From NCBI GenBank assembly GCA_021731625.1, contig JAKFXC010000062.1, forward strand, positions 4,479 to 68,478: a DNA stretch of 64,000 nt, in the 5' to 3' direction. Positions 17,395 through 61,337 of the stretch are shown in pieces (position 1 is the stretch's first letter; each line of letters opens with the position of its first letter). The notes below the pieces were generated by a model. It saw nothing but the letters and a program-made list of their open reading frames with translations, had not been told where the DNA came from and ran no database searches. This DNA is from Candidatus Omnitrophota bacterium (GTDB lineage Bacteria; Omnitrophota; Gorgyraeia; Zapsychrales; Fredricksoniimonadaceae). The translations under genes were made by a program, and so were the position numbers.

Positions 17395-17477
17395 TTTTTT
17401 CTTAATGCTGCATTCATTTCGGTTCACATAGAATAAAGGTCCAAGCATTTAAAATTAGTTAATTTAGGAGATGAATT

Positions 17478-17735
17478 ATGGCCGTTTTTAAGTCTATGGA
17501 CGGATCGCCTAAGGCCTTTCGCATCCTGCGTTTTTGTTATGTGGTTTTATCTTTGATTGCCGGATTGGACAAATTTTCTAATTCTTTGGTCAACTGGACC
17601 GCGTATTTGTCGCCGATCGTCAGCAGCAAGATGAATCCGTGTGCATTTATGAAGTTCGTGGGCGTCGTCGAAATCGCCTCCGGACTTTTGGCCATTGTCA
17701 ACCCCCGTAGTGCTGGTTATGTGATTGCCGCCTAG
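17478..17735 (+). CDS. DoxX-family membrane protein, interrupted by in-frame TAG at 17733-17735 (frame stays open to 17861)
   Basis: Two TM helices before the TAG. After it the frame continues LWGIILNLLTIPGYYD...LALANLARDHQHV without another stop for 41 codons, completing a typical ~127-aa DoxX. Confidence 0.5.
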   Translation: MAVFKSMDGSPKAFRILRFCYVVLSLIAGLDKFSNSLVNWTAYLSPIVSSKMNPCAFMKFVGVVEIASGLLAIVNPRSAGYVIAA

Positions 17736-17879
17736 CTTTGGGGGATCATCCTCAACCTTTTGACTATTCCCGGCTACTATGACGTCGCGGCGCGAGACTT
17801 TGCCTTGGCTCTGGGAGTGCTGGCCCTGGCCAATTTGGCCCGGGATCATCAACATGTTTAAATTGACTAAAGGGTCTAC

Positions 17880-19937: not shown

Positions 19938-19938
19938 C

Positions 19939-44007: not shown

Positions 44008-44304
44008 ATGATGCGATTTTTAATGATTTGTGTTTTACTTACCATGCCTGTGCTTTCCGCAACCGGCTGTGCGCACCGGGCCAGCACCACCCGGACAGAA
44101 ACAACCACCACCACAGACCGGGCCAGCAACATCGAGCCGGCGCAAGACACCACAATCCAGACCAAGACCCAGACCACCGAAACGAACACCACCGACACAC
44201 CTCACAGCGAGGGGGGTATTTTGGGCGGGACTTTCCATGTGGTGGGGGAAATTTTGGCGTTGCCGTTTAGGGTCATTGCCGGTGTTTTTGACGCCATTTT
44301 TTAA
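44008..44304 (+). CDS. Thr-rich lipoprotein
   Basis: Lipobox LSATGC after a signal peptide, then a TTTTTD/TQTTETNTTDT low-complexity region. The ORF-track start at 43864 is an upstream extension lacking signal logic. Confidence 0.5.
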   Translation: MMRFLMICVLLTMPVLSATGCAHRASTTRTETTTTTDRASNIEPAQDTTIQTKTQTTETNTTDTPHSEGGILGGTFHVVGEILALPFRVIAGVFDAIF

Positions 44305-44321
44305 GAAGGGGGGAGAGGGCC

Positions 44322-44855
44322 ATGAATCTTATTGCTTCGAGCATGATTTTCGGATTTCTGTTGTTATTTTTGGGCCGGAAATTGTTCTGGCTTATGGTGG
44401 GCCTCGCCGGCTTCTGGGTCGGTATGCACTATTCCGCCGTTTGGTGGCCGCAAAACACCCCAGCTATGCAAATGGGCCTAGCGTTGTTCTTCGGCATCAT
44501 GGGCGCGGTCCTGGCCATGGCCTTTGAATGGGCGGCGGTCATGTTGGCCGGGTTTGGGGCCGGCGGGTATTTGAGTTTATATTTTGTCGGGCCTATCCTG
44601 GATCCGTCCTATACGATGTGGATGTTTTTGGCCGCAGGGGTGATCGGCATGGTGGTGATGTATTTTGTTTTTGATAGGGCCTTGATCCTCATTTCCGCGG
44701 TCACCGGGGCGGCGCTGATTGTAACCCATTTAAGCCTGGCGCCGATATGGCAGAGCGTCGTGTTCATTGGCCTAGCGATCGGCGGGGCTGCGGTGCAGTA
44801 CTATAGTTTAGGGGAACGGGAAACGCATTTGGCAGAGCCGCACCCCCAGACCTAA
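44322..44855 (+). CDS. Polytopic membrane protein (6 predicted TM helices), unknown family
   Basis: Hydrophobicity pattern only. Confidence 0.45.
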   Translation: MNLIASSMIFGFLLLFLGRKLFWLMVGLAGFWVGMHYSAVWWPQNTPAMQMGLALFFGIMGAVLAMAFEWAAVMLAGFGAGGYLSLYFVGPILDPSYTMWMFLAAGVIGMVVMYFVFDRALILISAVTGAALIVTHLSLAPIWQSVVFIGLAIGGAAVQYYSLGERETHLAEPHPQT

Positions 44856-44884: not shown

Positions 44885-45337
44885 TTGTACAATGGCGCTG
44901 TGAATGGCGCCATTGTCTTTTTTTTAACTGTGTCGATGTCCCTCTTAAGCAGCGGGCCCTTGCAGGCGGACCCCTATTCCGTCAAAAAATACAGTCCGAT
45001 TTCTTTAAAAATTGAATTGCCCAAAGACACCTATGCCGTGGGCGAGCGCATCGACGCTAAAATTGTGGTGAGCAGCACCCGCGGCGGGGGTTATCCCGCC
45101 ACATTCAATATCCGTCTCTACCATGGCAAAGACCTTTTCGATGAATACCGGACCAATTTTCCGCGGATTTTTATGGGCCGCACCGAATATGCCTTAAATG
45201 ATTTTGGCATCCCGCCGTTTAATGATTCTCCGGCGGCGGTGGGGGACTGGAACATCAGCATTTTGCAGCAAGACCTGGATGTGTCGAACGCGGCGTGGGC
45301 GACCATCCATGTGGTGATGCCGGAAAGGGAAGAGTAA
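44885..45337 (+). CDS. Hypothetical exported protein
   Basis: Hydrophobic N-terminus; no recognised domain. Confidence 0.35.
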   Translation: MYNGAVNGAIVFFLTVSMSLLSSGPLQADPYSVKKYSPISLKIELPKDTYAVGERIDAKIVVSSTRGGGYPATFNIRLYHGKDLFDEYRTNFPRIFMGRTEYALNDFGIPPFNDSPAAVGDWNISILQQDLDVSNAAWATIHVVMPEREE

Positions 45338-45855
45338 TGCCAGACCTGGACCTGGAAAAAATTTATCTGCTCTTTATCCAATATGGCATGAACGTGCTCG
45401 CTGCGGTGGTCATTTTTATCATTGGCCGCTGGGCAGCGCACCTTATCTCCAACTTTTTTGGGGCTGTATTGGAACGGACCAAGGTCAACTTGACCTTAGT
45501 CTCCTTTGCCAAGCACTTGGCTTTTTACGGGATCATGACCTTTGTGATCATTGCCGCGCTGAACAAGCTGGGGGTGGAAACCACGTCGTTCATAGCGGTT
45601 TTGGGGGCAGCTTCTTTGGCGGTGGGGCTGGCTCTGCAGGGCTCCTTGTCCAATTTTGCCTCGGGCGTGCTGCTTATCGTGTTTCACCCGTTTAGAGTGG
45701 GCGACCACATCGAGGCCGGCGGGGCGAACGGCCGGGTGGTGGAGATCCAGATTTTTAATACCCTGATGGTGACCGATGACTATAAACGCATCATTGTACC
45801 CAACTCCAAAATTACCGCAGATAAAATTGTCATTTTTCCTCCTGCAGCTGCTTAA
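45337..45855 (+). CDS. Small MscS-family mechanosensitive channel protein (TM3 + beta-domain only, 172 aa)
   Basis: The pore-helix motif AVLGAASLAVGLALQGSLSNFASGVLLIVFHPFRVGD..E is the MscS TM3/beta-domain signature. Confidence 0.7.
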   Translation: MPDLDLEKIYLLFIQYGMNVLAAVVIFIIGRWAAHLISNFFGAVLERTKVNLTLVSFAKHLAFYGIMTFVIIAALNKLGVETTSFIAVLGAASLAVGLALQGSLSNFASGVLLIVFHPFRVGDHIEAGGANGRVVEIQIFNTLMVTDDYKRIIVPNSKITADKIVIFPPAAA

Positions 45856-45860
45856 AAATT

Positions 45861-45890
45861 ACCTGCTGATACCTGCTGATACCTGCTGAT
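45861..45890. repeat. Perfect 3x tandem repeat of 10-bp unit ACCTGCTGAT in the promoter region of the first giant paralog
   Basis: Seen directly: acctgctgat acctgctgat acctgctgat. Confidence 0.9.
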
Positions 45891-45930
45891 AAAATTTGCA
45901 TATCCGATAAAATTATGGCACACTTTCTCT

Positions 45931-48710
45931 ATGTTAGATTATCTATATAAGAAGATGGTCAGCCTGGCGCTAGTCACCGCCTTTGTCGGCTCTTTCGTGT
46001 ATTTACCCCCATCTCAGGCCCACGCGGATGTCCTTTTAGGGCTGCCTGCCCCCGGTACTATGGTCAGCTTAAGCCCCGGCTATGCCACAGCTTTAATCAA
46101 AGGTTTAACCCTTCGTAAAGACAATCCTTTTTTGTTTGATTTCGTGGTGGACACCGGGGATAGCGGCCTCTCCGCTGAGGCTTAAAAATAGAAGGGGACC
46201 GTTTAGTCAAATATTTCTTTGCCTGTTTGACCATTCCTGAAAAAGATCTCTGGGTCAACTTAAGCCCCTATGAAAAAGATCGAATAGTCCCGGAAGCCTT
46301 AGGACAAACCGCTTTGGGCCGGGATCTACTCGCCCAAGACTATTTCCTCAAACAATTAACCGCTTCGCTGATTTATCCAGAGAAAGGCCTGGGCAAAACG
46401 TTTTGGGACCGCGTCTATGCCCAAGCCCAGCAAAAATTTGGGACTTCGCAGATTCCCGTCAATACTTTCAATAAAGTCTGGATCATGGCAGATAAAGCCA
46501 ACGTTTATGAGAGCGGTCAAACCGCCTTTGTGCTCGACGGTCATTTAAAGGTGATGCTCGAAGAGGACTACCTAGCGCTGCAGAAGAATGCCAAACCGAA
46601 ACAAAATGCCGGGACCTCTCAAATTGTCCGCGAAATCCCGGCTTCCATATCAACGGCTCATGCCCAGGAAAGCCGGGATTCCCTGCTGGCTAAAAGTATT
46701 CTGCAGGAAATCATCATCCCGGAGCTTGAGCGGGAAGTGAATACGGGTAAGAATTTTGCCACTTTGCGCCAAATTTATAATTCCCTTATCCTGGCCAGCT
46801 GGTACAAGAAGAATCTCAAGGAAGCATTACTCAATGAAGTTTACACCGATAAGAGCATGGTCAAAGGGGTGGATCTTTCTGACCCTTCTATAAAAGAAAA
46901 GATTTATGAGCAATATCTGAAAGCGTATAAGCAAGGCGTATTTAACTATATTAAGGAGGAACCCCGGGGTGACGGGCAAACTCTTCCTAAGAAGTATTTC
47001 TCCGGTGGATTTGGCGTTGCCCAGAATTTTCAGGCCACGTACCATTCTAATTCTCCTGGCAGTAGACCACTCTTAAATAGAGCCATGCAAAGCCTTTCAA
47101 AGACCTTAGCGGTGGTTGCCGTTGCGTTGGTGATGAATAGTCCGTTAGCTGTTTCGGCCGCTGGCTATGATGCGAAAACAGACACCATTATTGATTTTAG
47201 CGGGCGAGCGCACAAGGCTCCGACTTTGGATGAAATGATAGAGCGAGGTATGGATCCGAGGGATCCTCGGAGTTTCCTGCCCCCAGATTATTTTCGTGAT
47301 CTTTTTGGATTTGAAGAAATGATGCTGGCAGATCCTAAAATAAAGACGGAGGTCCTGAGAAGGATAGCGGAGGCGGTCAACCCGCGTGGGGCAATGTCCG
47401 CCGAAGAACTGGCGTATTTAACCAAATTTTCCAGCGAATTGTTGAGGAGACTGGCAGGATATGATCAGCCTCCTTCGCCGTGGTATACCGCACCAGGAGT
47501 AACTATTCCCAATGATGTCCAAGTCGACGCTCAAAAGGCAAAAAGAACGGCGGGTTTCAAAACAACCCAAGAGTGGGTGGATTATTTGGAAAACGAACTG
47601 CGCTTACCGCGGTTGATGGTTGAAGAATTGAGGGAGCTCAATGAAAAAGGCAAAGATGTTTTTGCTATCATCGATGCGTTGCCCCTGAAAGGATTCTCAC
47701 CACGGGTCGCCGATTTAGCCAGAGGGTTTCTCAAGGCGAGGTTTGCCAACGATCAAAAAACCCAGCTGCAGACGATCATGGACTTGATAAGAATACGAGA
47801 GGAAGCCCTAATTCTACGATCAGATGATCTGCTTCTGCTGGCTGTTTTTAAGGCGGGGTATTTTACCATACTCGAGACGAAGCGATTAGATCAAATAGCT
47901 GGTATTGCCGCAGAGGATGTAAGCCGCTATAACAGTGTGTTTTTTGGTCATTTGCTGGCCCAAATGATGGGGGACTCAGACCAAAAAGCGGAATTAAAGC
48001 AACGCATCAGGCAAATGTATGTGACAGCGTATGCCCGCGCATGGGCAGCCAAGCGAAACACCCTAAACGGACTATTTGCGGACAACGGTATTTACACCCG
48101 ACCCATGTTTAATTCCGCAGGCATGGACAACACCGAATTGCGGCGTATGAATGACATAGCCCAAGGCATTATCACGGCGGCGACGGCCTTAAGACTAGCC
48201 AATGGCAGTCAGGATCGCCTGGAGTCTTTAATCAGAGAATGGGACAAGGCTAAAGGCAATGTCTCATTTGCTTTCTCGAGAATTTTCCATGCCGTAGTCA
48301 TGGGACGACAAGCCGGTGATGTGCAGAATATAGATTTCCCAGGAATATTGGACACATTGAATGCTCTCCCGCCCAATAGAAGACCGGACCGTGACGATCT
48401 TCGAAGATGGGCCGAGCTTGTCCAAAAAAATAGAACTAAGCAAGAGAAGGCAATGGTGGCGCCGGACGAGGCCGATCAAGCCGTAATCACGGAGACCAGC
48501 GATGCCGTATCACCCGGCGGTATCGACTTAAAAACGGCCAACCTGGCCATGACGGTCACCAAAGACGGGAACGGCGGTGTGCAGGTGCTATTTGACCCGT
48601 TACTGCTGGAGGATCTCAGAACTCAAGGTATAAAATCTGCAAACCCCATCATTGTGGATATTAAGCTCATGAGTTCGGCGCAGATTCCCGCTCTCCTTTC
48701 TACACCATGA
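45931..48710 (+). CDS. Giant-protein family paralog 1 (~925 aa if the frameshift is repaired): signal peptide + shared N-domain + unique middle + shared C-terminal module; frameshifted at 46181-46189
   Basis: ORFs 45931..46185 and 46227..48710 are collinear with paralogs 2 and 3: ...DSGLSAEA | LKIEGDRLVKYFFACLTIPEKDLWVNLSPYEK versus LSGEALKQESLKLIKYFLAGLTVPQKDLWVNLSPYEK. One extra nucleotide in the ctt-aaaaa run would restore the frame. Confidence 0.6.
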
Positions 48711-51700
48711 GTCTACGACGCTATATTCTTATTTTGATAATCAGCACAAACTTGATGGCTCCATTGCCGGCACCGCAGGCCTCCGAACTGATTTTGCCGC
48801 AGCCGGGCAGTATGCTCACGCCTACAAAAGCATACAATTCGGTATCGGTCAAAGGCCTAACCATTGACCCTAAAAATCCACTGCGATTTAGTTTTATTGT
48901 TGAACCCGGGGATACGGGATTAAGCGGCCTGCAGCTTAAAGATGAATCCCTCAAGCTTATTAAATATTTTCTTTCGGCATTAACCATACCGGAAGACGAA
49001 ATGTGGGTCAACCTTTCGCCTTACGAAAAAAATCGCATCATTACCGATCAATTCGGATCAACTCAAATGGGCCGGGATTTATTGGCCCAAGACTACATCC
49101 TTAAACAGCTCAGCGCTTCTTTGATCTATCCGGAACATGCTTTAGGAAAGGCGTTTTGGCAAAAAGTATATTCTCAGGTTAAGGATCAATTTAGAACCAC
49201 GCAAATGCCGGTTAATATGTTCAACAAAATTTGGATCGTTCCGGACCAAGCGTCAATCTATGAGCATCAAAACAGCGCGTTTATTGTTAACTCGAGATTA
49301 AAAGTGTTAATGGAACAAGACTATCTGGCCACTCAAAAGAATGATCAGGTTATTTCAAAAGAGCCGCAGGATCGCGGGCTATCTCAAATCATACGCGATA
49401 ATATCGTGCCTGCGATCGAAAAAGAGGTCAACGAAGGGGCCCACTTTGCCAATTTACGGCAAATCTATCAAGCCATGATATTAGCGGTTTGGTATAAAAT
49501 TCGGCTCAAAGACAGCCTCTTGGGAAAGACGTATGTCAATTTGCATAAAGTCAAAGGTGTGGCACTGGCGAACACCAAAGACAATGACATGATTTATCAG
49601 AATTATCTTCGGGCTTTTAAAAAAGGAGTCTTTAACTACATCAAGGAAGAAGAGAATTTGGCAAATCACGAAATGGTTTCCAGAAAATATTTTTCCGGGG
49701 GATTTATGCCGGCTCAATTAGCCCCCATCGTAAAGCAAGGTTTAGTATTCAACCTGCCAGATAGGGCGATCCTAAGCCCAGAGGCTCAAACTGTCACCTG
49801 GGAAGCGGAGGCACTGACCTCGGACCAGGGGATGACTGGAGAATTGCAACAAAGTCTAAAAATGTCGGATCAAGATTTTCAAGTCCTGCTGGGTAGACTG
49901 GCCAAAGATAAGTACATCACCGCAAATTCGGAAGTGGATTTAGAGTTTAAAGGCCTGAAGCCGGCTTACGCCAGGCTTTATCCTGCTCACCATGACCGAA
50001 TTTCAAAGTTACTTTCCGACGGACGTTTAAAACGGCTGGAAAAAATGGAACAAGACCGCAGAGCTTCCATCAAGCAGGAGCTAGGTGATTGGACAGAGAA
50101 AGTCAATGCGGCGGTAAAGCGGAATCAGCAAACAGAAGCAACCAAAAGGGAGGCCTTGGTCCAAAAATGGACACCAACATTTAAAAGATACGGCATTTAT
50201 TATTTTTATTTATTTAAATATATGTCAGAACGTATATTCCACATGCCGTTTAGGTATGAGCTGGAAGATTTTCTCCAAGAATCTGTTGTTGCTTGCCATG
50301 GCGTTGCTGAATTGGGAAAGACAGATGACATTTCGTTTATCATAGCTGCCCAACGGCATTTTCTGCAGTTTTTCGCGGAAGAAGACAGGATACCCTACAA
50401 AACAAAAGTTGGCGTGGTTACAAAGTTGCGGGCTTTGATCGAAAATTATTCTGCCTCCAAGCTTCAAGTGGTGCCAAATAGGTACCTTGTGCCTGCGCTA
50501 CGAGCTGAGTTTCCTAAGCTCCAGCGGTATGTACGCCCCAATGACCCGTTGGAAGGGGAGGTTGAGGCGGGTCATTTCGGATTAATTCCCCTGGAGGAAA
50601 CGTCACGGGAACTATATTTGCAAGCGGCTCTACCTAGAGTCTTGGATCAAACGAAGAAAGCCAATCGTCTTGTCGCTCTGCAATTTGGCCTTGGTGATGA
50701 CATAGAAAAGAGCAATGCATGGATTGCCAAAGAGTTGGGGTATCAGTTCGAAAATAGTGTGCGCTCAAGGTCGTACGAAATCCGGGTGACATTAAGCAAG
50801 AATAAGGCCTTGCGGGACCTTACTGTTTATGATCATCAATGGGTACTGTTCAATGATACTCTAGATTTTTTGCGTTATCAAGAGCGCGCCGCACAGAGTT
50901 CCTCGCCCAAAAAAATTCCTCATGAGCCGGCATTGAATTTTGAAGACGAGCGGCGATTGATGGATTTGGTGCATTTGTGGTTTGCTGCAAGTCAGCTGCG
51001 ATTTCTGCGGGCACTGTATTTAGGAGACAATACCGATAGCTTCAACGAGGGGGTGCAACGAGAAGCTAAACGAAGGATCAATTTATTCCTCACGCTCGGT
51101 GTGTTGTCTGAATTTGGTTTGGGGGAGCAATTAATCCCCACCATTGTCCGCTTGAGCGCCGAAACCCCACTGCAGCGCATGTTTCGTCATGCGGGAGTAG
51201 AGCAATTGTTAAGAATTTCCAATGGGGACATTAATGCCGTGGTTGAATTCGTCATGCAAATGTTTCCCGAGGTATATAAGGAAGAGGATGTTCGGCGTTT
51301 AGCTCGAGGCTATTTTGATTTACCCAAGATTCCGCAAAGTCCCCATGTTGCTCCTCAACAAGTCCTTAGAATTGTTCATAACGTCATTAGTAAAATGGAA
51401 GGTGGCGAGAGTAGACGTAGATATTTGGTCAAAAGACGCTTAGTCCGTGATCTCTACTACCATTCGATCGTAAACAATACATCGCAAGCATTAGAGGGTC
51501 TTAATGCTGCTATCGGCGAAGCCGGCAGCGATCAAGAATGGCAAAATCTTTTAAAAGACACGTATGACTACTATCAACAAGCGACCGCGTTTTATCCACG
51601 CGGCTTTCAGGAGGAAACTGAGGTGGGTCAGGAGCCGATGCTGCCCGCGCAGAGATTTGGTATTTGGGAGGCAGTTTTGTCCCTATCCAATCCTCGTTTG

Positions 51701-53347
51701 GAAAGTGCGGTGCATATGAGTGAAGCCCGTATCGGCAAAACCATTATGGCGATTTTGTCCGTCTTTAATGTGCGCAAGCCGAATAGCAATGACTATGCGG
51801 TGCGGAAGGTCCTCTACACCACCACCAATAGCGCCAAATATGAGGTTTACAATGAGCTTGTGCGGCGTACGAATAAAGAGTTGGATTTGCATGTTATTGT
51901 GGTCGACCGTCAAAACGGCAATCGTGAGCAGCAAGTCGAAGAAGCCATTAAGTTAGCGGAAGATCCAACCAAAAACGTGGTGTTAATCGCCAATTATGAC
52001 GCCGTGAGATTATCACCGGAGGCATTTTCTAAATTTGCTCCTGACGCGCACATTGTTGACGAGGTGGAGTCGCTAAAAAGTGGTGATGCCAAGCGCACTC
52101 CTATCATTTTCGGTATTCCAGCGAAATATCGGGTTGCGGTCAGTGCCCGCGCCGTAGTCAATCGCTCAGAGGATGTCCATGAATTAATTTTGTGGACCCA
52201 GCACCGCGAATTCTTGCCTTGGGGAAGAAAGAAAGAAGACGCATTGCAGGAGCTTAAAGACATGTCCCAAGATCGAGTATTTGAGGTGTTAAGCAGGAAT
52301 CAGAGTCGATGGCGCCGTAGTACCGTTATGCCTGAGGTCAAAGAACCCGTATTTACCAATGAGCCTATTGAATATTCACTGGAGCAGCAACAAAGCATTC
52401 TGAAAATCAGCAGCGTGGATGAATTTGAGGATTGGCAATTAAACGAAGCGCGGGAAGACAAGGGAGACATGAACGATAGTGTTCTGACAAGGATTGATTT
52501 ACTGAGAAGAGCCAGTATTGAGCTGGGCTTGGTTCAAAAAGAAGCCTATTTCGGACAATATATGGACGCGTCCCCAAAAATTCAGCGCCTGGATGCCATC
52601 ATTGACAATGAATTCAAGAGTCAGGGAAAAGTATACGTCGAAGCAGATTTTCCCGAAGCCATTGACCGATTGGTGGCGCGTTATGCCCAAAAATACGGGC
52701 CGCGAGCAGCGGCAGGAATCCATGGTCAAACGCTCGTTAAGGACCGAGTTGATATTATTCGCCGGTTCCGCAGTGACCCGGAATTAAAAATATTGATAGG
52801 GACACCGCATACAACAGCTTCTTCCTTGAATTTGTCTCAGCTGCGAGGTAGTTCTTTCCACAATTCTTTGTTAGTGCGATTAGATTTGCCCGCTCGCAAT
52901 GTCGATGATGGCGATCGTTTGATCGATCCTTGGCAAGATAAGCAAGTCCGGGTGATCTCATTAATAGGCGTCTTTCGAAAGGATGATCTTGCCAAATACA
53001 AGCGATCCATTGATGAGCAGTTCTTCGACTTGCGGTCGGAGAAGCAACGGGTCTTCGAGCATGTTATTGATGGAAAACCCCTCGTTTCGGATGAGGAAAC
53101 GGAAGAAATTAAGGATATGGTTGAGGAGTTTATGGAGCCGTCGGAAATCGACGCTGCCATGATGGAAAAGGGTGGTATCGATTTAAATTCCAAATCCTTG
53201 AAGCTGCACATGAATGGTGATCAACCGGCTGCCTCGTTTAGGGGTACGTTCCTCCCTGCATTTGATGGTCTTTACCCGGTGCTTGTCGATATACAGCCAG
53301 CGAATACTGGTTCGAAATACCCCCCCGGATTATTTGAAAAGCATTAA
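48707..53347 (+). CDS. Giant-protein family paralog 2 (1546 aa, intact): signal peptide + shared N-domain + SNF2-like SF2 ATPase module + shared C-terminal module
   Basis: Shares the N-terminal ~330 aa with the other two paralogs. Internal SNF2 motifs: I SEARIGKTIMAI, II HIVDEVESLKS, III RVAVSARAVVNRSEDVHELILW..FLP; helicase-C-like GIHGQT..ILIGTPHTTASSLNLS and DKQVRVISLIG. Confidence 0.7.
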   Translation: MSLRRYILILIISTNLMAPLPAPQASELILPQPGSMLTPTKAYNSVSVKGLTIDPKNPLRFSFIVEPGDTGLSGLQLKDESLKLIKYFLSALTIPEDEMWVNLSPYEKNRIITDQFGSTQMGRDLLAQDYILKQLSASLIYPEHALGKAFWQKVYSQVKDQFRTTQMPVNMFNKIWIVPDQASIYEHQNSAFIVNSRLKVLMEQDYLATQKNDQVISKEPQDRGLSQIIRDNIVPAIEKEVNEGAHFANLRQIYQAMILAVWYKIRLKDSLLGKTYVNLHKVKGVALANTKDNDMIYQNYLRAFKKGVFNYIKEEENLANHEMVSRKYFSGGFMPAQLAPIVKQGLVFNLPDRAILSPEAQTVTWEAEALTSDQGMTGELQQSLKMSDQDFQVLLGRLAKDKYITANSEVDLEFKGLKPAYARLYPAHHDRISKLLSDGRLKRLEKMEQDRRASIKQELGDWTEKVNAAVKRNQQTEATKREALVQKWTPTFKRYGIYYFYLFKYMSERIFHMPFRYELEDFLQESVVACHGVAELGKTDDISFIIAAQRHFLQFFAEEDRIPYKTKVGVVTKLRALIENYSASKLQVVPNRYLVPALRAEFPKLQRYVRPNDPLEGEVEAGHFGLIPLEETSRELYLQAALPRVLDQTKKANRLVALQFGLGDDIEKSNAWIAKELGYQFENSVRSRSYEIRVTLSKNKALRDLTVYDHQWVLFNDTLDFLRYQERAAQSSSPKKIPHEPALNFEDERRLMDLVHLWFAASQLRFLRALYLGDNTDSFNEGVQREAKRRINLFLTLGVLSEFGLGEQLIPTIVRLSAETPLQRMFRHAGVEQLLRISNGDINAVVEFVMQMFPEVYKEEDVRRLARGYFDLPKIPQSPHVAPQQVLRIVHNVISKMEGGESRRRYLVKRRLVRDLYYHSIVNNTSQALEGLNAAIGEAGSDQEWQNLLKDTYDYYQQATAFYPRGFQEETEVGQEPMLPAQRFGIWEAVLSLSNPRLESAVHMSEARIGKTIMAILSVFNVRKPNSNDYAVRKVLYTTTNSAKYEVYNELVRRTNKELDLHVIVVDRQNGNREQQVEEAIKLAEDPTKNVVLIANYDAVRLSPEAFSKFAPDAHIVDEVESLKSGDAKRTPIIFGIPAKYRVAVSARAVVNRSEDVHELILWTQHREFLPWGRKKEDALQELKDMSQDRVFEVLSRNQSRWRRSTVMPEVKEPVFTNEPIEYSLEQQQSILKISSVDEFEDWQLNEAREDKGDMNDSVLTRIDLLRRASIELGLVQKEAYFGQYMDASPKIQRLDAIIDNEFKSQGKVYVEADFPEAIDRLVARYAQKYGPRAAAGIHGQTLVKDRVDIIRRFRSDPELKILIGTPHTTASSLNLSQLRGSSFHNSLLVRLDLPARNVDDGDRLIDPWQDKQVRVISLIGVFRKDDLAKYKRSIDEQFFDLRSEKQRVFEHVIDGKPLVSDEETEEIKDMVEEFMEPSEIDAAMMEKGGIDLNSKSLKLHMNGDQPAASFRGTFLPAFDGLYPVLVDIQPANTGSKYPPGLFEKH

Positions 53348-53386
53348 GAATATGTTATACTTTCATAGATTCACAGGGAAATCCTC

Positions 53387-56300
53387 ATGAACAAATCCAA
53401 AAAAACCGCATACCTTGCTTCCTTTATTATAGTTTCTTTCGTCACCAGTTTTTCGCAAACGCCGGTCTACGCCCAGGAACTGATCCTGCCGTTGCCCGGG
53501 ACCATGGTCACGGCCAGCCCTAAATTTGCGCCAGCCATTATACGCGGTATCCAGTTTAACGCCAAAAACCCCTTCCAATTTGATTTTATCATTGACCGCG
53601 GGGACGACAAGCTCTCCGGGGAGGCTTTGAAACAGGAGTCCTTGAAACTCATCAAGTATTTCCTGGCCGGCTTGACTGTGCCGCAAAAGGACTTGTGGGT
53701 CAACCTCTCGCCGTACGAAAAAGGCCGCATTGTGCCGGACGGCTTTGGCCAAACCGACATGGGCCGCGACCTGTTGGCGCAGGATTACCTTTTGAAACAA
53801 CTGACCGCGTCGCTGGTGTACCCAGAAAAAGAATTAGGCAAAAAGTTTTGGGAAAAAGTCTACGCTAGGGCCAAAGAGCAGTTCGGTTCGGCCCAAATAC
53901 CCGTTAATACCTTTAATAAGGTGTGGATCGTGCCGGACAAGGCCGTGGTGTTGGAGCGTAAAGGCGGCGTGTATGTGTCTCAAAGCCATTTGAAGGTGAT
54001 GCTGGAACAAGACTACCTGGCTTCTCAAAAAAACGTTAAGGTAGCTAGGTCCCAGAAGGGGATTACCACTGCTTCAGACAAGGCCGTGTCTTCCCAAACC
54101 ATCCGCGACATCATTCTCCCCGAGATCGAACAGGAAGTCAATGAAGGCGCCAATTTCGCCGCCTTGCGCCAGGTGTTCAATTCTCTAATTTTGGCCATCT
54201 GGTATAAAAAGAACCTCAAAGATGCGGTGCTCAATAGAGTTTATGCTAACTCCAACAAAATCAACGGCATTGATATTGAAGATAAAGACAGCAAGGAGAA
54301 AATTTACCAGCAGTACCTGCAGGCGTTTAAAAAAGGTGTGTATAGCTATATTAAGGAAGATGCTACGCCTGCGGGTCAGTCAGCCGCCAGGAAATATTTT
54401 TCCGGCGGCGTCAACGTGGAAAACTTGGTTGTGGAAACCGAAAAAGAAAACCAGGCCATGGCCCTCACCATCGCTGAACGGAGCCGCAATGGCGATCTGG
54501 CTCAAATTAGCTGGTTGACCCAGGAGGTTAAAAATCCTAGGTATAGACAAAATTACACACAGGCCCGGTATACCTTCTTAATGAGCACCAAAGGCTATCA
54601 GGAGAGCCTGGGTCGTAAATTTGCACTGCAACTGGATGCTAATCGTGGTGATGGTGTGCTCTCGTATCATCAGCAATTATTGCAAAAAGCATTTAGCCTC
54701 GACCTGAAGAAGCAGAAGGAATTCCTGGCTGCATATAAAGATTATTTTAAATATAACCGCTATGGGATGGAAAATTCATCGATCCCCCGGACCTCGAAAA
54801 ATTGGTGGGTACGGAGCCCGCATTCGGATACTACGAGGGTGAGCATTTCACTTCCTATGCGACCGATGAACTGCTGGCTGTGGATTATCTTAAGACTTTT
54901 GCCCCGGCAGATTTTGACCGCGAACTCAACTGGCTGCTCGTGGAAGTTCCCGCCTTAACGGACGAGCAGGATATGAGTTCCGAAAAGCTGCTGCAATATT
55001 TGGACGAGGCCATTAAGCGCTTGTTCTCCTTTGCAGACCTTAAGCTTCATACGGATGTCCGCTTTCAAGTAGAGCAAGACTTACGCACCTATTTTTATAA
55101 ACAGCTGCTAAATCGCAAAAGTACTTCCCAGCGTATAATCCGGTTGTCCAACACCACGTCGCGCGATGGCCAGCAATCTAACAAAGGCACAAACCTGACA
55201 GGTCTTGACCAGTGGAAACTATTGTCCTGGATTGTAAAATTTGGCAATGTATCCACGATTGAATCCTGGGGCGGGGCTGCAAATCAATCCGCGGTCTTAA
55301 AGACCAAGCGCATTTATCAAGTGCCCGGACAGGAAGAGCCGCTGAAAAATTGGGCCGAGGACCCTTTTTTTAATTTAAGAGAGCAGACAAAATTGTTGGA
55401 AGATAACCTCAAGGAAGCTTTTGGGGAAGACCTGGATCGGTTGGAGGATGATGACCGCGAAAGGATTTTCAATCGGTACAAGCGCGACTTTGACCGCAAA
55501 ATCTTATCCGAATTTGACCTTAATGCGATTCTGAAAAGATACAATCTCAGTGAACAGGTGAAGAATCGCGTCCGTAAAGTCTATGAGATTAAGCAGGAAA
55601 TGCTTTTACGCGGGACTTTTCTGGTTGCCCTGGATCAGTTTCCGGAACCGGTGGTGAAGGAATTTGTGGAGGTGGCATGGCGGAATGGAGTCGATGTTTT
55701 TCGTATTTTTGATGCCATGAACCGGATCAACGAAATCGATGGGCCGCTTAAATACGCCCGGGCCCTGGGAGCTAAAGTCCAGCCTGCCATTCATTACACC
55801 AAAGGTTTTCCTAGGGGGATTCCTAAATATGTGGAGCTAGCCAAGGAATTGGTCAGAATCAGCGGGCACGCCCTGGATAGTTTAGTGATCAAGGATGCCG
55901 CAGGCCAGTTGGAGCCGGAGGAAGCCTATAAACTGGTTAAAGCTTTGCGTCAGGCGGGCATCACTGTTCCGATTCAAATCCATACCCATGATACCAATGG
56001 TAATCGGCAATTGACGTTGTTGGAAGCTATCCGAGCCAACGGGGAAGATTATCCCATTATTGTGGATGTGTCCACCGGTGAGTTGGCCGCACCCTTGGCC
56101 CAGCCCAATGACCGCCATTTTTTAAACATTGTGCAGGGAACAAAGTGGGAGGGGACGCTCATTAAAGATGTGGATTTTGAGCAAATGGAGCAAGCGGAAT
56201 TTTTTATAAAAAGCGACATTAACCTTCACAGTCCCTCTGTGCCAATGACGACCGAAGATCGTTTACGCATCGTGAGAGCGAACATTCCCGGAGGTTTAAA

Positions 56301-57489
56301 AACGAATAATGACAATGATATCAACAATGCCTTACATATGTATGAAAAACTCATCCGTAAAGTTTTCGATATTATTTTTTGGGATCCGCGTGGGAACTTG
56401 ACCGCCAAGGGCCAGGCCTTTAGAGCTGCCTTAGTACGGCTTATGGAGGAAGAAATACCAAGGGTTCGTAAGGACATGGGCAATTTCTCATTGGTCACGC
56501 CCACCAGCGAGTGGGTGGTCAAGCAGTCGCTAAATAATGTTATAGGGTGGATTATTGCAGACCAAACGGTTTTGAACACCAGCAATCCGCAGCAGTGGCA
56601 GCTGTCCATCAAAGAAGATCTCCTCCGTAAAAACCGTAAGAGCCAATATCTGTACAGTGTTGGTTTGGCCGCTCATTTGCATGAAGATCTGCAAAATTAC
56701 CTGGTTGAGTGGACCCAGGACACGGAATTGCAGGATATGTATCCGGATATAAACACAGAGTTGCTGGCTTGGGCGTTTGATATCGAAGGCATTAATATTG
56801 AATTGGATGATCAAAATCGGTTGACTGATAGTCCGCTCGAAAAATTTCAAAATTTAAGAAAATTTTTTGAAAAAAGATTTGTGGATGTGCCTACCATCAA
56901 AGTTTTGCATAAAATGGAAAAATTACGGGAAGGCGGCGATGCGGACGCTCTAGAGAATCTGGAATCTCAAGAATTTTCTTGGGACCTGATCAATAGGATT
57001 TTAAAAAACGAAAAACCCATGAATATCATCAAAAGGCCGGAAGATTATGTCCAGAACTACCAACAGCTGCGGAATAAATATCCTCAGGTCAAGGGTTCAC
57101 CGGAAGATAAAATCTTGGCCAGAGTTTTTCCCAAGGAAGGTCAGTTTTCAAATTTAATTGAAACCAGGAGGATCTTAGAAGAGCAGATCGACCAAGCCCG
57201 CCAAAACTTGCCGGCAGATCATGAGAAGATTCGCAGTTTAGCTGCGGCTTATAAACGTGCCGGCGGTCGCAGCGGAGAGCGGCGTAGCGCAGCGAGTGCC
57301 GCCATGATCGGTGATGACAAAGACGGCGGCATCAATTTGAATCCGGATTTTTATGATCTGCAGATTAATCGCGAAGGTAAAAGAGCTATTGATTTTGCCA
57401 TGCAGGGACCTGCTTTAACTCCGCAGCAAGTCCAAGGCCTCACCCCTGTCATCCTCGGCGTCAAGATCTTGACGCATTTGGAAATTTAA
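53387..57489 (+). CDS. Giant-protein family paralog 3 (~1367 aa if the frameshift is repaired): signal peptide + shared N-domain + pyruvate-carboxylase-type carboxyltransferase TIM-barrel domain + shared C-terminal module; frameshifted in C5 tract 54784-54788
   Basis: ORFs 53387..54958 and 54802..57489. One extra C gives a continuous ...YGMENSSIPPDLEKLVGTEPAFGYYEGEHF. The internal region NGVDVFRIFDAMN...AIHYTKG...LVIKDAAGQLEPEEAYKLVKALRQAGITVPIQIHTHDTNGN...DVSTGELA aligns with the PC/OadA carboxyltransferase domain. Confidence 0.6.
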
Positions 57490-57514: not shown

Positions 57515-58063
57515 ATGGATTTCGAAGCGGTTTCCAAAATGGTCATGGATCAGTTTGGGAAACACCAGGTGCGGTGTGCCATTATCGGTGGTTTTGCCCT
57601 GCATGCGGCGGGGTTCCATCGGGCTACCGTCGATATTGATTTTCTTGTCCATGTTCAGGACATGCCGAAGGTTAAGGCCACTTTGGCAGCTTTAGGGTAC
57701 GACCTTAAGCATGAAAGCAAAGACGCCGCCAATTTTTGGGGTAAAATGGATACCTTGGGCAACATTGATTTCATCATTGCCCACCGCAAGTATGCTCTGG
57801 CCATGCTTGAGCGTTCTAAACCTTTTGAAATCGTCAAAGGCTGCACAGTCAATGTGATTGTCCCCGAGGATATCATTGGGTTAAAAGTCCAAGCGTTTAG
57901 CAATGATCCTGACCGCTACCGCCAAGATATAGCCGATATTTACTGGTTAATCAAGAATTACCGTGAACAATTGGATTTAAATTTACTCCGGGAATATTTC
58001 GGATTATTTAATTGTTCAGATAAGTTAGAGCAAATTTTAAAAGAGACGAACAATGCTCAGTGA
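57515..58063 (+). CDS. Minimal nucleotidyltransferase-fold protein (AbiEii/AbiGii toxin-like family)
   Basis: The IGGFALHAAGFHRATVDIDFLV motif is GG(x)...DxD of the NTase fold, as in AbiEii-type proteins. Confidence 0.55.
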   Translation: MDFEAVSKMVMDQFGKHQVRCAIIGGFALHAAGFHRATVDIDFLVHVQDMPKVKATLAALGYDLKHESKDAANFWGKMDTLGNIDFIIAHRKYALAMLERSKPFEIVKGCTVNVIVPEDIIGLKVQAFSNDPDRYRQDIADIYWLIKNYREQLDLNLLREYFGLFNCSDKLEQILKETNNAQ

Positions 58064-58519: not shown

Positions 58520-59031
58520 TGTTTGAACCAGTTCTGTTCCAGGCATTGCCGCAGCTGCAAGCGGGCCCGATAGAGCAGTACCCATAGATTAGTCGAAGAT
58601 ACCCCTAAAATCTTACAAATTTCCTCGCTTTGCATCGCTTCCAGTTTGCGCAGACGGAAGGCTTGCGCAGCTTTGTCCGGCAAACGCCCCATGCAGTCCT
58701 GGAACAGCTGCCAAAACTCCTTGTTTTCCAGCAAGGCGGCGGGGTTAAATTGCCAATTGCCGGGGGCTTTGGCCAAATGGCCATAATCGGCATTGTCAAA
58801 AAATTGCTCCACGTGCATGTCAGCTTCGACCAGTTGCGAGGCCGGCACTTCCCTATATGTAAGACGCAGATAATCTGCGATTTTATGTTTGAGGATGCCG
58901 ATCAACCAAGTTTGTTCGCTGGATTTACCTTGGAAATGGGCACGGTTCTGCAAAGCAGAAAGCAAGGTTTCCTGTACCAGGTTTTGGGCTTGGTCTGGCT
59001 GGGCGATCGATTTGAGGGCGTAGGCATACAA
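58516..59031 (-). CDS. ECF-subfamily RNA polymerase sigma-70 factor (TTG start)
   Basis: Region 2 (LVQETLLSALQNRAHFQGKSSEQTWLIGILKHKIADYLR) and region 4 HTH (SEEICKILGVSSTNLWVLLYRARLQLRQCL). Confidence 0.8.
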   Translation of the reverse strand: MYAYALKSIAQPDQAQNLVQETLLSALQNRAHFQGKSSEQTWLIGILKHKIADYLRLTYREVPASQLVEADMHVEQFFDNADYGHLAKAPGNWQFNPAALLENKEFWQLFQDCMGRLPDKAAQAFRLRKLEAMQSEEICKILGVSSTNLWVLLYRARLQLRQCLEQNWFKQ

Positions 59032-59199
59032 GCTCGCCGTATAAATCGACCCAATCCTCGGGATCTGAAGAAGATGCGGAAGACATCAGCCCTCATTCAA
59101 CCTGAGACGGACAAAAAAGGCAAGAATTTTGTAAGGATTTGCTGGTATAATCGACTAATACGCAAAGGCAAAGAAAATCAGGAAAGGCCGGTCCCATTG

Positions 59200-60738: not shown

Positions 60739-60800
60739 GGATAGCAGTTTGGCAGGAGAGCATTGCTGACTTTAACTACACATTTGCCGAGGATAAGACC

Positions 60801-61337
60801 ATGAGCGATGCCAATTATCAAAAAGCCACTTTTGCCGGGGGCTGCTTCTGGTGCATGCAGCCTTTTTTGGAAAAGCTTAAAGGGGTCAAAAAAGTCACGG
60901 TTGGCTATACCGGCGGCCAGACCGTCAATCCAACCTATGAGCAAGTGACCTCCGGCAACACCGGACATGCCGAAGCGGCAGAAGTTTTGTTTGACCCGCA
61001 GGAGATTTCCTACGCCAAATTGCTCGACGTGTTCTGGCGCAACATTGATCCCACCACCGAGAATCAGCAATTTGTGGACATCGGCACCCAGTACCGCAGT
61101 GCGGTGTATTATCACGATGCCCAGCAGAAGCGTCTGGCGGAAGAATCCAAGAAGCAGCTAGAGGCTTCAGGCAAGTTCGATAAGCCGATTGTCACTGAGA
61201 TTTCCGCCGCTTTGCCGTTTTATCCGGCCGAGAATTACCATCAGGACTATTACAAGAAAAGCCCGCTGCATTACAAAATGTACAGCACCGGCTCCGGCCG
61301 AGAGCAGTTCTTGCAGAAGGCATGGGGCAAGGACTGA
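60801..61337 (+). CDS. msrA: Peptide methionine-S-sulfoxide reductase
   Basis: Canonical GGCFWC active site, YHQDYY and the whole-length MsrA pattern. Confidence 0.9.
   Translation: MSDANYQKATFAGGCFWCMQPFLEKLKGVKKVTVGYTGGQTVNPTYEQVTSGNTGHAEAAEVLFDPQEISYAKLLDVFWRNIDPTTENQQFVDIGTQYRSAVYYHDAQQKRLAEESKKQLEASGKFDKPIVTEISAALPFYPAENYHQDYYKKSPLHYKMYSTGSGREQFLQKAWGKD

Follow-up and report, generated by a model that had tools for sequence, protein, structure and literature searches.

A far-diverged SNF2-family ATPase joined to a sigma-like region in a leader-bearing Omnitrophota carrier protein

A far-diverged SNF2-family ATPase spans residues ~975-1425 of a 1546-aa protein encoded on the forward strand of a Candidatus Omnitrophota contig. 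As judged from its sequence and modelled fold, this region is a true two-lobe SNF2-family ATPase of a distinct, fast-evolving clade. It makes up the C-terminal portion of a conserved module consisting of a primary-sigma-like region, a helical domain and the SNF2 ATPase, and the module of this gene (gene B) is the variable "cargo" within an Omnitrophota-specific carrier scaffold of leader, N-domain and GGIDLN motif. We suggest, with a probability of about 0.4, that the protein is an exported accessory motor directed at RNA polymerase and DNA and acting in the cytoplasm of another cell, the last step being one that we infer. If true, it would be an RNA polymerase-directed effector, working like a tethered RapA-type motor.

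Table 1. Features of gene B and its neighbours. Positions are those of the window, the whole 64,000-nucleotide stretch of DNA that was analysed.
Feature	Residues	Nucleotides	Strand	Sequence or basis
Carrier gene A, upstream paralogue		45880..48710	+	leader and N-domain, unannotated variable region, GGIDLK motif
Gene B, whole	1546 aa	48707..53347	+	ORF
Sec-type leader	1-26	48707..48784	+	MSLRRYILILIISTNLMAPLPAPQAS; positive n-region, short hydrophobic core
Omnitrophota carrier N-domain	~28-335	48788..49711	+	LPxPGxM ... WVNLSPYE ... YFSGG
Variable, charged linker	336-474	49712..50128	+	not conserved in family
Degenerate sigma70-like region	475-735	50129..50911	+	homology of relatives and profile A4
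Conserved all-helical domain preceding ATPase	781-960	51047..51586	+	10/10 relatives; helices in model
SNF2 lobe 1	961-1170	51587..52216	+	LPAQR (Q-like), motifs I, Ia, II, III
Motif I	1005-1012	51719-51742		SEARIGKT
Motif Ia	lobe 1			LYTTTNSAKYE
Motif II	1115-1125	52049-52081		HIVDEVESLKS
Motif III	1141-1152	52127-52162		YRVAVSARAVVN, core YRVAVSAR
SNF2-type helical insertion between lobes	1171-1300	52217..52606	+	helices H374-524 of model
SNF2 lobe 2	1301-1425	52607..52981	+	motifs IV, V, VI and GIHGQT..RFRS block
Motif IV	lobe 2			GKVYVEADF
GIHGQT...RFRS block	1337-1356 (lobe 2)
Motif V	1362-1377			ILIGTPHTTASSLNLS
Motif VI	1390-1410			VRLDLPARNVDDGDRLIDPWQ, ending DDGDRLIDPWQ
VRVISLIG	1414-1421	up to 52969
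Carrier C-terminal motif	1480-1546	53144..53344	+	DAAM..GGIDLNSKSLKL...LYPVLVDIQP; shared with N-domain relatives
Carrier gene C/D, downstream paralogue		53387..57489	+	leader (..VYA/QE) and N-domain; GGINLN motif at end

The ATPase and its catalytic motifs

The sequence-only reading had assigned this region to the SNF2/SF2 ATPases from a set of quoted motifs, all of which lie where it placed them in the ORF. The assignment is upheld by profile searches and by the fit of the motifs to a RecA-like fold. With the whole protein Pfam SNF2-rel_dom reaches 28.7 bits, and with the fragment 30.7 bits (gathering cut-off, 24.9 bits); Helicase_C scores 19.3 and 21.3 bits, slightly below its Pfam cut-off of 23.5. 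The best sequence-profile match is PHROG phrog_62 "DNA helicase", a phage/bacterial helicase family (E=3.3e-19). An exhaustive phmmer search of 1.84 billion proteins connects the ATPase region to canonical compact SNF2 helicases (E=1.7e-14), and the pairwise alignment with one compact SNF2 helicase, P0143, is colinear over 530 columns (E=2e-21). In HMMER alignments the motifs pair exactly with their equivalents in Sulfolobus SSO1653 (PDB 1z63), and they occupy the strands and helices where such motifs are expected in two RecA-like lobes. The insertion between the lobes, which includes SRWRRSTVMPEV and SPKIQRLDAII, aligns to the equivalent blocks of 1z63. The sub-cut-off Helicase_C score belongs to lobe 2, the fold of which is confirmed.

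The nucleotide-binding and hydrolysis core is intact, with K1011/T1012, D1118/E1119 and R1404 all present. The GKT of Walker A and the DE of Walker B are invariant in 10/10 aligned relatives and, with the first arginine of motif VI, in 11 sequences of 30-50% identity, which suggests selection on catalysis. Two features are replaced family-wide (ten aligned relatives): motif III has SAR instead of TGTP, and motif VI lacks its second arginine. Such changes, a missing TGTP and one missing arginine finger, might leave ATP hydrolysis less well coupled to translocation. The protein keeps 83% of the near-invariant family positions (range among relatives, 69-96%), and its departures from the family consensus are mostly conservative, such as L to M, I to V and R to K. 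Its additional departures in motif VI are W1396A and IDPWQ where the family has GIGQ. The sequence GIHGQ in place of DG had also been read as a sign of degeneracy; this block is non-catalytic and is therefore uninformative on activity.

The sigma-like region and the carrier scaffold

Gene B encodes, in order, the leader, N-domain, linker, sigma-like region, helical domain, SNF2 ATPase and C-terminal motif. The signal-peptide-like start noted earlier is borne out: its short core is the sole hydrophobic segment of the protein, and no transmembrane segment was found elsewhere in the 1546 residues. At 1546 aa the protein, earlier described as "giant", is better called large. The cleavage site of this leader is non-canonical, without a clean AxA. 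In the linker, pLDDT is ~30 over residues 368-420, the part that was modelled.

Profile A4, built for the middle region from an alignment that takes in the row of this protein, matches SigA/RpoD from sigma2.2 to sigma4.2 (E=1e-24). The sigma2-like segment lies at residues 498-533 and the sigma4-like segment at 652-696, and residues ~478-630 are homologous to the same region in P0121 and P0122. Three relatives (P0121, P0122 and P0127) have Sigma70_r4 above the Pfam cut-off, and SNF2-rel_dom is above its cut-off in these or their relatives. Taken alone, the sigma-like region of gene B is undetected by Pfam and by an r4 HMM built from the relatives. It is heavily decayed, and therefore it is doubtful that this copy binds RNA polymerase. 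The sigma-helical-SNF2 module is found in ~20 large proteins of Omnitrophota type, including proteins of 3,000-7,647 aa. It is confined to 19 clusters at E 1e-30 or better among 1.84 billion representatives and to 6 loci among 185,579 species genomes. Because of this sporadic distribution we regard the module as accessory, not housekeeping. Other large proteins with the module (P0126-P0131), from which the N-domain is absent, also start with signal-peptide-like leaders.

The N-domain (~300 aa) is common to at least 3,980 Omnitrophota protein clusters, and 100 of the 120 best N-domain relatives have the C-terminal GGIDLN motif in their last 110 residues. A complete N-terminal leader is present in 107 relatives; in 104 of them it is Sec-like, as here, and in 89 it has an AxA-like site. 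The variable regions of the carriers contain glycolytic enzymes, kinases and regulators, most of the cargo being central-metabolism enzymes. This signal-peptide-bearing family with cytoplasm-type enzymes as cargo is very large and apparently undescribed. Its size, like the C-terminal motif and the sigma-like region, went unnoticed in the sequence-only reading. Three carrier genes stand in tandem at the locus, so that the paralogues expected by the sequence-only reading do exist, and the C-terminal motif also ends both neighbours. Gene A has a -1 frame change near 46179-46185. Since the ATG of gene B overlaps the stop of gene A (ATGA), the two are probably co-transcribed. Gene C/D consists of two ORFs split by a frame change near 54760-54960, and its variable region is a pyruvate carboxylase B/OadA-type carboxyltransferase region. 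No secretion genes were found adjoining this locus or another carrier gene.

A possible site of action

In the reading that we tentatively favour, the protein would be exported by Sec, and the N-domain and C-terminal motif would serve as sorting, secretion or translocation elements. The cargo would be active in the cytoplasm of a cell other than the producer, most plausibly a prokaryote that serves a predatory or epibiotic Omnitrophota cell as prey or host. In that cytoplasm the sigma-derived part may dock on the RNA polymerase core, at the beta' clamp helices and beta flap, and the SNF2 motor, by ATP-driven translocation on duplex DNA, may displace, stall or re-target the polymerase. That the ATPase is constantly paired with a region resembling bacterial primary sigma factors suggests RNA polymerase and DNA of bacterial type. 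Ultra-small, host-dependent or predatory traits are reported for Omnitrophota (PMC10066038; bioRxiv 10.1101/2023.11.21.568195), and RNA of the predator Ca. Velamenicoccus archaeovorus has been seen within dead prey cells (PMC13153191). Export, outer-membrane secretion and entry into another cell are all predicted steps here, and the central-metabolism cargo of most carriers is odd for effectors.

It is unlikely, though worth weighing, that the motor acts in the producer's own cell, with the leader as an uncleaved membrane tether or as a signal for a periplasm-like compartment, internal or enlarged. In that case the carrier family would organise cytoplasm-type enzymes and transcription factors at the membrane, and the sigma-SNF2 protein would be a RapA-like recycling or remodelling factor for the organism's own RNA polymerase. 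Such a location would supply the ATP, DNA and polymerase that the cargo requires and suits the conserved catalytic motifs, the housekeeping-type glycolytic enzymes that dominate carrier cargo, the setting of carrier genes amid ordinary chromosomal genes with no secretion loci nearby, and the lack of a clean cleavage site in this leader. A 2026 preprint also argues that much Omnitrophota long-protein content is membrane-anchored (10.64898/2026.06.07.730766). However, the leader core (KD19 below 1.6) lacks the length of a membrane anchor and positive residues precede it, and therefore the whole body is predicted to be translocated out of the cytoplasm. The AxA-like sites of most relatives also argue against a tether, the module occurs much too sporadically to be a housekeeping transcription factor, and no sequence affinity to RapA was found.

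Somewhat less probable still is a catalytically impaired pseudo-ATPase, exported as a binding or structural unit for extracellular DNA or a surface coat and having no motor function. A degenerate structural ATPase had been proposed earlier, and the replacements in motifs III and VI uphold that part of the proposal, as do the additional motif VI departures, the Helicase_C score and the absence of ATP outside the cytoplasm. But deep divergence has left the Walker A Lys/Thr, the Walker B Asp-Glu and one arginine finger unchanged, and without nucleotide binding and hydrolysis such invariance would be difficult to account for. Most departures of this protein are also conservative.

An effector remodelling eukaryotic or archaeal-histone host chromatin, the other option raised earlier, is very improbable. 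The best structural matches are eukaryotic remodellers, e.g. Ino80, ISWI and Rad54, and among Omnitrophota predators at least one preys on an archaeon (PMC13153191). Yet solved SNF2 structures are mostly eukaryotic remodellers, so this ranking mirrors the library. The link to eukaryotic chromatin is nothing more than the generic SNF2 fold. Domain searches found no histone- or nucleosome-binding domains (HSA, SANT, chromo, bromo). The reading is unsupported: the best profile is a phage/bacterial helicase family, and a homologue of bacterial sigma factors is the constant partner. Least likely is an anti-phage defence ATPase akin to ZorD, DpdE or BREX helicases, since the weak PADLOC matches (ZorD, E=2.6e-6; DpdE, E=3.8e-5) are generic SNF2 similarity weaker than PHROG or Pfam, an AbiEii-like nucleotidyltransferase gene lies 4 kb downstream but the flanks yielded no ZorA/B/C, Dpd or BREX partners, known defence ATPases are cytoplasmic and without Sec leaders, and the fixed partners of this ATPase are the sigma-like region and carrier domains.

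Comparison with known systems

MARTX toxins, polymorphic toxins and T9SS substrates with a C-terminal domain have conserved ends and variable middles, and they are analogies only. As in these, the terminal elements of the carriers flank variable enzymatic domains and there are many paralogues per genome; no sequence or fold relationship to them was found. The carrier differs in combining a Sec leader, a new ~300-aa N-domain and a ~60-aa C-terminal motif and, compared with MARTX and polymorphic toxins, in its cargo of mostly central-metabolism and signalling domains. Giant proteins of the same phylum ("Archaeovorins" and others), as presented in two papers (bioRxiv 10.1101/2023.11.21.568195, 10.64898/2026.06.07.730766), combine signal peptides or predicted extracellular regions with domains of cytoplasm type (aldolase, PPDK, PGM, receivers). 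Unlike them, the protein described here has 1546 aa and lacks transmembrane helices and SecA-like domains. In term searches, neither paper turned up SNF2 or sigma domains, and their passages on N-termini and signal peptides do not describe the N-domain/GGIDLN carrier.

A close relation is with the SNF2/Swi2 ATPases (PF00176 and PF00271), including SSO1653 (1z63), Ino80, ISWI, Rad54 and the phrog_62 compact helicases. The two RecA-like lobes, the SNF2-type helical insertions, the colinear motif blocks (Q-like, I, Ia, II, III, IV, V, VI) and intact GKT and DE are shared, whereas solved and canonical members are only 13-22% identical to this ATPase. Motif III of the family has SAR where these have TGTP, motif VI is G.RL.GIGQ (here DRLIDPWQ) as opposed to R..RIGQ, a conserved 180-aa helical domain and the sigma-like region stand upstream, and the module is embedded in a leader-bearing protein. 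With the primary (group 1) sigma factors RpoD/SigA, the middle of the family aligns from sigma2.2 through sigma4.2, including the ...IEAKA.RKL..PSR tail. In contrast to these factors, the region is fused into large multidomain proteins and, in gene B, has decayed beyond profile detection. In some family members several -35-contacting positions are replaced relative to what we take to be the E. coli sigma70 region 4.2 consensus.

RapA/HepA is the bacterial RNA polymerase-associated Swi2/Snf2 ATPase and is functionally coupled to the polymerase (PMC8501970, PMC8666675, PMC10334767). It is cytoplasmic, leaderless and widespread, unlike the gene B protein, and binds polymerase via its own N-terminal domains and not via a sigma homologue; polymerase binding by the gene B protein is putative. 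RapA/HepA is nevertheless the nearest precedent for how a sigma-tethered SNF2 domain may act.

The ATPase of gene B and its catalytic motifs

Gene B encodes a SNF2-fold ATPase with conserved catalytic core residues, and across the family this ATPase is fused to a homologue of primary sigma factors and to a helical domain within a leader-bearing scaffold. Its profile matches, the order of its motifs and its fold all place it in the SNF2 superfamily, and the signal is above chance. The Pfam profile SNF2-rel_dom (PF00176) matches the whole protein with 28.7 bits and its C-terminal fragment with 30.7 bits, which passes the gathering cut-off of 24.9. Helicase_C (PF00271) reaches 19.3 and 21.3 bits, respectively, slightly below its cut-off of 23.5, and the lobe-2 fold together with motifs IV-VI can be seen in the predicted model and the alignments. 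The PHROG family phrog_62 ("DNA helicase") matches aa 976-1377 (E=3.3e-19), and PADLOC gives weak matches of the ATPase to ZorD and DpdE, which are both SNF2 proteins. Top matches of a phmmer search against PDB sequences include Sulfolobus SSO1653 (1z63), Ino80 and zebrafish Rad54. All motifs quoted in the sequence-only reading lie where it had placed them within the single ORF of gene B, and the colinear PDB alignments pair each with a genuine SNF2 motif. With phmmer run exhaustively against 1.84 billion representatives, gene B is connected to canonical compact SNF2 helicases (E=1.7e-14). Pairwise, it aligns over 530 columns (E=2e-21) with P0143, a related protein that has DEMGLGKT, DEVQKIKN, SGT and DRIHRIGQ. 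The predicted model contains two RecA-like lobes with SNF2-specific helical insertions, and its nearest folds are SNF2 ATPases. In this model GKT lies at the start of helix 231-240 (model numbering); LYTTTN, VVLIANY, HIVDE and RVAVSA occupy successive strands of lobe 1, followed by a helical insertion of ~150 residues, and KVYVEA, ILIG, LLVRLDL and VRVISLIG are on strands of lobe 2. Thus, with profile searches above noise and motifs that map to a RecA-like fold, the proposed SNF2/SF2 assignment holds.

Degeneracy was judged on an alignment of gene B with ten relatives at 30-50% identity. The consensus of these sequences is LPAQR (Q-like), SEAR[ITV]GKT (I), LYTTTN.AKYE (Ia), PDAHIIDE[VI]ENL (II), YRI.ISAR (III), VRWRR..V.PE, GKVVVLVDF (IV), ILIGT..LGSSLNL (V) and RLSRPW.N.DDG.RL.GIGQ (VI). 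Walker A (G1010-K1011-T1012 in gene B) and Walker B (D1118-E1119-V-E) are invariant in 11/11 family sequences. The TGTP(xxN) of motif III is absent, with VSARAVVN in gene B and ISAR in the family. From the two-arginine form of motif VI, QAxxRxxRIGQ, the first arginine is kept as the invariant R1404, and the second is replaced throughout the clade, by Gly in the family (GIGQ) and by Asp/Pro in gene B (IDPWQ). The clade therefore departs from classical SNF2 proteins in two motif features, TGTP and the second motif VI arginine. The only extra deviation of gene B from its own family is in motif VI (W1396A; IDPWQ for GIGQ). Gene B keeps 86 of the 103 near-invariant family positions (83%), compared with 69-96% for the relatives by the same leave-one-out measure, and its departures are mostly conservative. 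GIHGQ, which had been taken as a sign of degeneracy because it stands in place of DG, belongs to the block separating motifs IV and V, which is non-catalytic, and hence does not argue for inactivity. We conclude from these comparisons that gene B represents a distinct, divergent SNF2 clade, the nucleotide-binding and hydrolysis core of which is probably under selection.

The sigma-like region and the distribution of the module

When the C-terminal 1146 aa were used in a word-index homology search, gene B alone was returned. The relatives surfaced in the exhaustive search, in which 19 clusters had E <=1e-30 among the 1.84 billion representatives. The block conserved among them (aa ~780-1500 of gene B) comprises an all-helical domain of 180 residues (LRFLFTLGVL.EFGS...SE.PLER.FR...) and, after it, the two SNF2 lobes; upstream of the block a sigma-70 homologue is evident in the relatives. 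Pfam Sigma70_r4 is above its cut-off of 24.1 in three of them (P0121, 37.2 bits; P0122, 27.9; P0127, 56.6) and sub-threshold in P0131 and P0132; SNF2-rel_dom is above cut-off in P0122, P0131 and P0132. A profile built from the middle region of five relatives and gene B matches the primary sigma factors SigA/RpoD in the PDB (E=1.2e-24), in one unbroken stretch that starts at region 2.2 and takes in all of region 4.2. Within gene B itself, a sigma2-like segment at aa ~478-580 (YYFYLFKYMSERIF...LEDFLQESVVACHGV) has detectable homology to P0121 and P0122, and aa 652-696 (...LVALQFGLGDD...IAKELGY...VRSRSYEI) align with region 4 by position. Searched alone, the gene B sigma region is undetected by Pfam. 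Because the region 4 HMM of the relatives also misses it (shuffles <=2.1 bits), we call this sigma4 degenerate, with positional homology only, and the sigma part of the gene B copy appears decayed. The sole Pfam match on the middle 600 aa of gene B, TipAS, is sub-threshold and was dismissed.

Region 4.2 of P0126, P0127 and P0122 retains the primary-sigma scaffold and a C-terminal tail (IEAKA.RKL..PSR). The positions that we take to correspond to the -35-element contacts of E. coli sigma70 (VTRERIRQI) are replaced in P0126 (VTGANIGVI), which suggests a possible core binding without promoter recognition.

Among 185,579 species-representative genomes the module was found in six loci: two labelled Omnitrophota, one from an uncultured bacterium, and three from bins with the labels Myxococcaceae or Elusimicrobia. 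In JGI metagenome contigs, scanned by pattern, there was no relative. P0125 is named Candidatus Omnitrophica. The closest relatives of gene B (P0121, P0122, P0123, P0133 and P0136) end in GGIDL, and are thus carriers like gene B, that is, members of the leader-bearing Omnitrophota family described below. The deeper relatives P0126 (7,647 aa), P0127, P0128, P0129 and P0131 are without the carrier N-domain, and signal-peptide-like leaders are present in them. Three of these (P0126, P0128 and P0129; 1,870-7,647 aa) share another leader-proximal domain (..LP..LG.V....V.ILDAHS...Q..I..I...L), with a weak Tiki/ChaN-type Pfam match in P0128, which may represent a second carrier type. The sigma-SNF2 module is therefore rare, accessory and fast-evolving, and is found consistently in leader-bearing proteins. 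In the literature searched, no sigma-SNF2 fusion is described.

The carrier scaffold and its surroundings

A search with the whole gene B protein matched at least 3,980 clusters (8,000 candidates scored) at 42-60% identity, and these matches cover only the first ~20-30% of the query. Those named by organism are from Candidatus Omnitrophica/Omnitrophota, and two more bear just the label "hydrothermal vent metagenome". The proteins are 850-2,700 aa long and have a Sec-type leader, an N-domain of ~300 aa and a C-terminal motif of ~60 aa in common. Among the 120 best matches the N-terminal leader is complete in 107; in 105 of these the n-region contains K/R, a strongly hydrophobic 8-mer is present in 104, and an AxA-like site in 89. 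The N-domain (aa 28-335 in gene B) begins with LPxPGxM and has invariant WVNLS and Y-S-G-G, and the C-terminal motif, D.AM..GGIDLN..L.LQIKRD..G.PLP....I.GF.PVI..I.PV.NLP.LLGL, occurs in 100 of the same 120. Gene B has all three elements, including the landmarks WVNLSPYE and YFSGG and a GGIDLN-type motif. Its leader has a positive n-region, a hydrophobic core and a non-canonical cleavage site; the leaders of both neighbours have AxA-like sites. Outside the leader, gene B has no hydrophobic segment, and if the leader is functional, the entire body of ~1,520 aa is translocated.

The cargo between the two conserved ends comprises very diverse Pfam domains. Judged by their accessions, with part of the names confirmed by the sources, we take them to include PGK, TPI, GAPDH, class I aldolase, PGI, PFK, hexokinase, PGM/PMM, PEPCK, PPDK and UDP-glucose pyrophosphorylase, together with Ser/Thr kinases, PP2C, receiver, HTH and cNMP-binding domains, methyltransferases and HEAT repeats. 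Gly-Gly pairs are found at both cargo boundaries in the carrier alignment, in the invariant YFSGG (aa 328-332 of gene B, nt 49688-49702) and in GGIDLN (aa 1489-1494, nt 53171-53188; Gly-Gly at least 90% conserved). They could serve as double-glycine sites at which processing sets the cargo free; domains of C39-type peptidases have been reported from Omnitrophota giant proteins. Our literature search for the N-domain/GGIDLN carrier gave nothing specific. In two preprints on Omnitrophota giant proteins, a term search found no SNF2 or sigma domains, and the N-terminal and signal-peptide passages do not describe the scaffold or the module; the preprints do report cytoplasm-type enzyme domains in proteins predicted to be extracellular or membrane-associated.

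Three carrier genes are in tandem on the forward strand (window 45880-57489), with a shared layout of leader, ~300-aa N-domain, cargo and GGI[DN]L (see table). Gene A has a -1 frame change at ~46179-46185, beside an A5 run, and gene C/D is read as two ORFs through a frame change at ~54760-54960; in the database copy of the contig, 53387-54958 is called as a separate 523-aa protein. Further overlapping same-strand ORFs in different frames are present at 44030-44855 and 44885-45855, the latter being a split MscS channel gene, so assembly indel errors are as likely here as pseudogenes. Outside the three carrier leaders, the sole strongly hydrophobic segment of 19-22 residues (KD 2.0) is in gene A, at aa 293-314 of the ORF 46227-48710, roughly where the N-domain ends; it may be a transmembrane or a buried helix.

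The GC content is 45-48% over 46-58 kb, the carrier block, versus 49-56% in the remaining window. The latter is ordinary chromosome, with a trehalose/glycogen cluster, GH15, GT4, a TPP enzyme, aldehyde dehydrogenase, MscS, two-component systems with histidine kinases, and the AbiEii-like and DsbD/Msr genes. The alpha-glucan genes suggest storage-glucan or trehalose metabolism, and the DsbD-thioredoxin-MsrB fusion with MsrA looks like an envelope methionine-sulfoxide repair unit. In the 569-aa ORF, either two genes have been merged by error or the fusion is genuine and unusual. No AbiEi-type partner is recognisable next to the nucleotidyltransferase, and no secretion-system genes were found beside the carriers of the window or beside another carrier gene examined. 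A promoter and terminator scan gave chance-level, uninformative results.

Coordinates of features in the window and of motifs in gene B
Feature	Position	Strand	Description
Alpha-glucan cluster	13542-22713, 34980-36602	+	alpha-amylase-family/CBM48, glycogen debranching enzyme (GDE_N/GDE_C), isoamylase-like, GH15 glucoamylase/trehalase-like
Gene A	45880..48710	+	leader ...SQAHA before D, N-domain, unannotated variable region, GGIDLK motif
Gene B	48707..53347	+	1546 aa; ATG overlaps stop codon of gene A; cargo sigma-like + SNF2
Gene B, motif I	aa 1005-1012		SEARIGKT
Gene B, motif II	aa 1115-1125		HIVDEVESLKS
Gene B, motif III	aa 1141-1152		YRVAVSARAVVN
Gene B, block	aa 1337-1356		GIHGQT...RFRS
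Gene B, motif V	aa 1362-1377		ILIGTPHTTASSLNLS
Gene B, motif VI	aa 1390-1410		VRLDLPARNVDDGDRLIDPWQ
Gene B, strand	aa 1414-1421		VRVISLIG
Gene C/D	53387..57489	+	leader ...VYA before QE, N-domain, pyruvate carboxylase B / OadA-type carboxyltransferase region, GGINLN motif
Nucleotidyltransferase	57515-58063	+	AbiEii/NTP_transf_5-like, 182 aa; directly after third carrier gene
DsbD-Msr genes	58630-61337	+	DsbD transmembrane domain-thioredoxin-MsrB fusion, 702 aa, then separate MsrA gene
Single ORF	61420-63129	+	569 aa; MarR-type HTH aa 34-92 and OEP/TolC-like repeats aa ~385-557

Possible function and relation to known systems

The cargo of gene B depends on ATP and duplex DNA, and also on the core of RNA polymerase should its sigma part be functional; its site of action must therefore be a cytoplasm. 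The leader, which is conserved in thousands of paralogues, predicts that the protein would be exported. Omnitrophota have been reported to be ultra-small and host-dependent or predatory (PMC10066038; bioRxiv 10.1101/2023.11.21.568195), and dead prey cells have been found to contain RNA of an Omnitrophota predator (PMC13153191). Since the module is also sporadic, an exported effector fits these points best. We hypothesize, with a probability of roughly 0.4, that gene B acts in a prey or host prokaryote as a polymerase-docking SNF2 motor, similar to a tethered RapA (PMC8501970, PMC8666675, PMC10334767). After export the protein would reach the cytoplasm of that cell, its sigma-derived part would dock on RNA polymerase, and the SNF2 motor would translocate on DNA and displace or stall the polymerase. 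Points that weaken this reading are the non-canonical cleavage site of the gene B leader, the decay of the sigma region in this copy, and the predominance of metabolic enzymes in carrier cargo, which is odd for effectors.

Alternatively, the cell that makes the protein might use it itself, at a membrane or in a compartment; we think this unlikely. Less likely again is an exported pseudo-ATPase or binding module. The sequence-only reading had considered a degenerate ATPase, and the loss of TGTP and of the second motif VI arginine is in line with that part of it, but the invariant Walker A Lys/Thr, Walker B Asp-Glu and R1404 argue against it. A chromatin effector, the other option of that reading, is very improbable. 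A role as a defence ATPase is the least probable of all, as there are only weak ATPase matches to ZorD and DpdE, and no partner genes of Zorya or Dpd are in the neighbourhood.

The effector hypothesis for gene B can be joined to the carrier family as a whole. We doubtfully propose an undescribed, phylum-wide Omnitrophota delivery architecture (Sec leader, novel ~300-aa N-domain and GGIDLN) that exports a "portable cytoplasm", including a sigma-SNF2 motor that hijacks or strips polymerase. The exported set would consist of glycolytic enzymes, kinases, regulators and, in gene B, the sigma-derived motor; it would be sent to prey or host cells, or else into a compartment outside the cytoplasm that contains ATP, and the boundary Gly-Gly pairs may serve for processing. 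If true, this would be the first secreted motor that hijacks or strips the RNA polymerase of a target cell. Should RNA polymerase still be bound by the sigma part, this would be a new coupling of a DNA translocase to the transcription machinery, and possibly a new class of inter-cellular effector. The scaffold is of wider importance, as in thousands of Omnitrophota proteins an export signal is paired with enzymes dependent on phosphorylated intermediates, ATP or DNA. Where the carriers act bears on whether these uncultured ultra-small bacteria are predators, parasites or cells of an unusual plan, and the conserved N-domain, the C-terminal motif and the defined cargo provide handles for testing this.

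The ATPase of gene B is not RapA, ZorD or DpdE. Membership in RapA/HepA was rejected, as no RapA-specific Pfam or NCBIfam family matches and RapA is absent from the PDB sequence matches and the listed fold matches. Compared with classical SNF2 proteins, the clade shares Walker A and B, whereas TGTP and the second motif VI arginine are missing. Relative to the literature searched, the sigma-SNF2 architecture is new, and so is the family of N-domain/GGIDLN carriers; the carrier system around the module may have the greater novelty. SNF2 motors as such are familiar; what is new in that literature is a clade in which the motor is permanently joined to a primary-sigma-like domain and sits in leader-bearing proteins.
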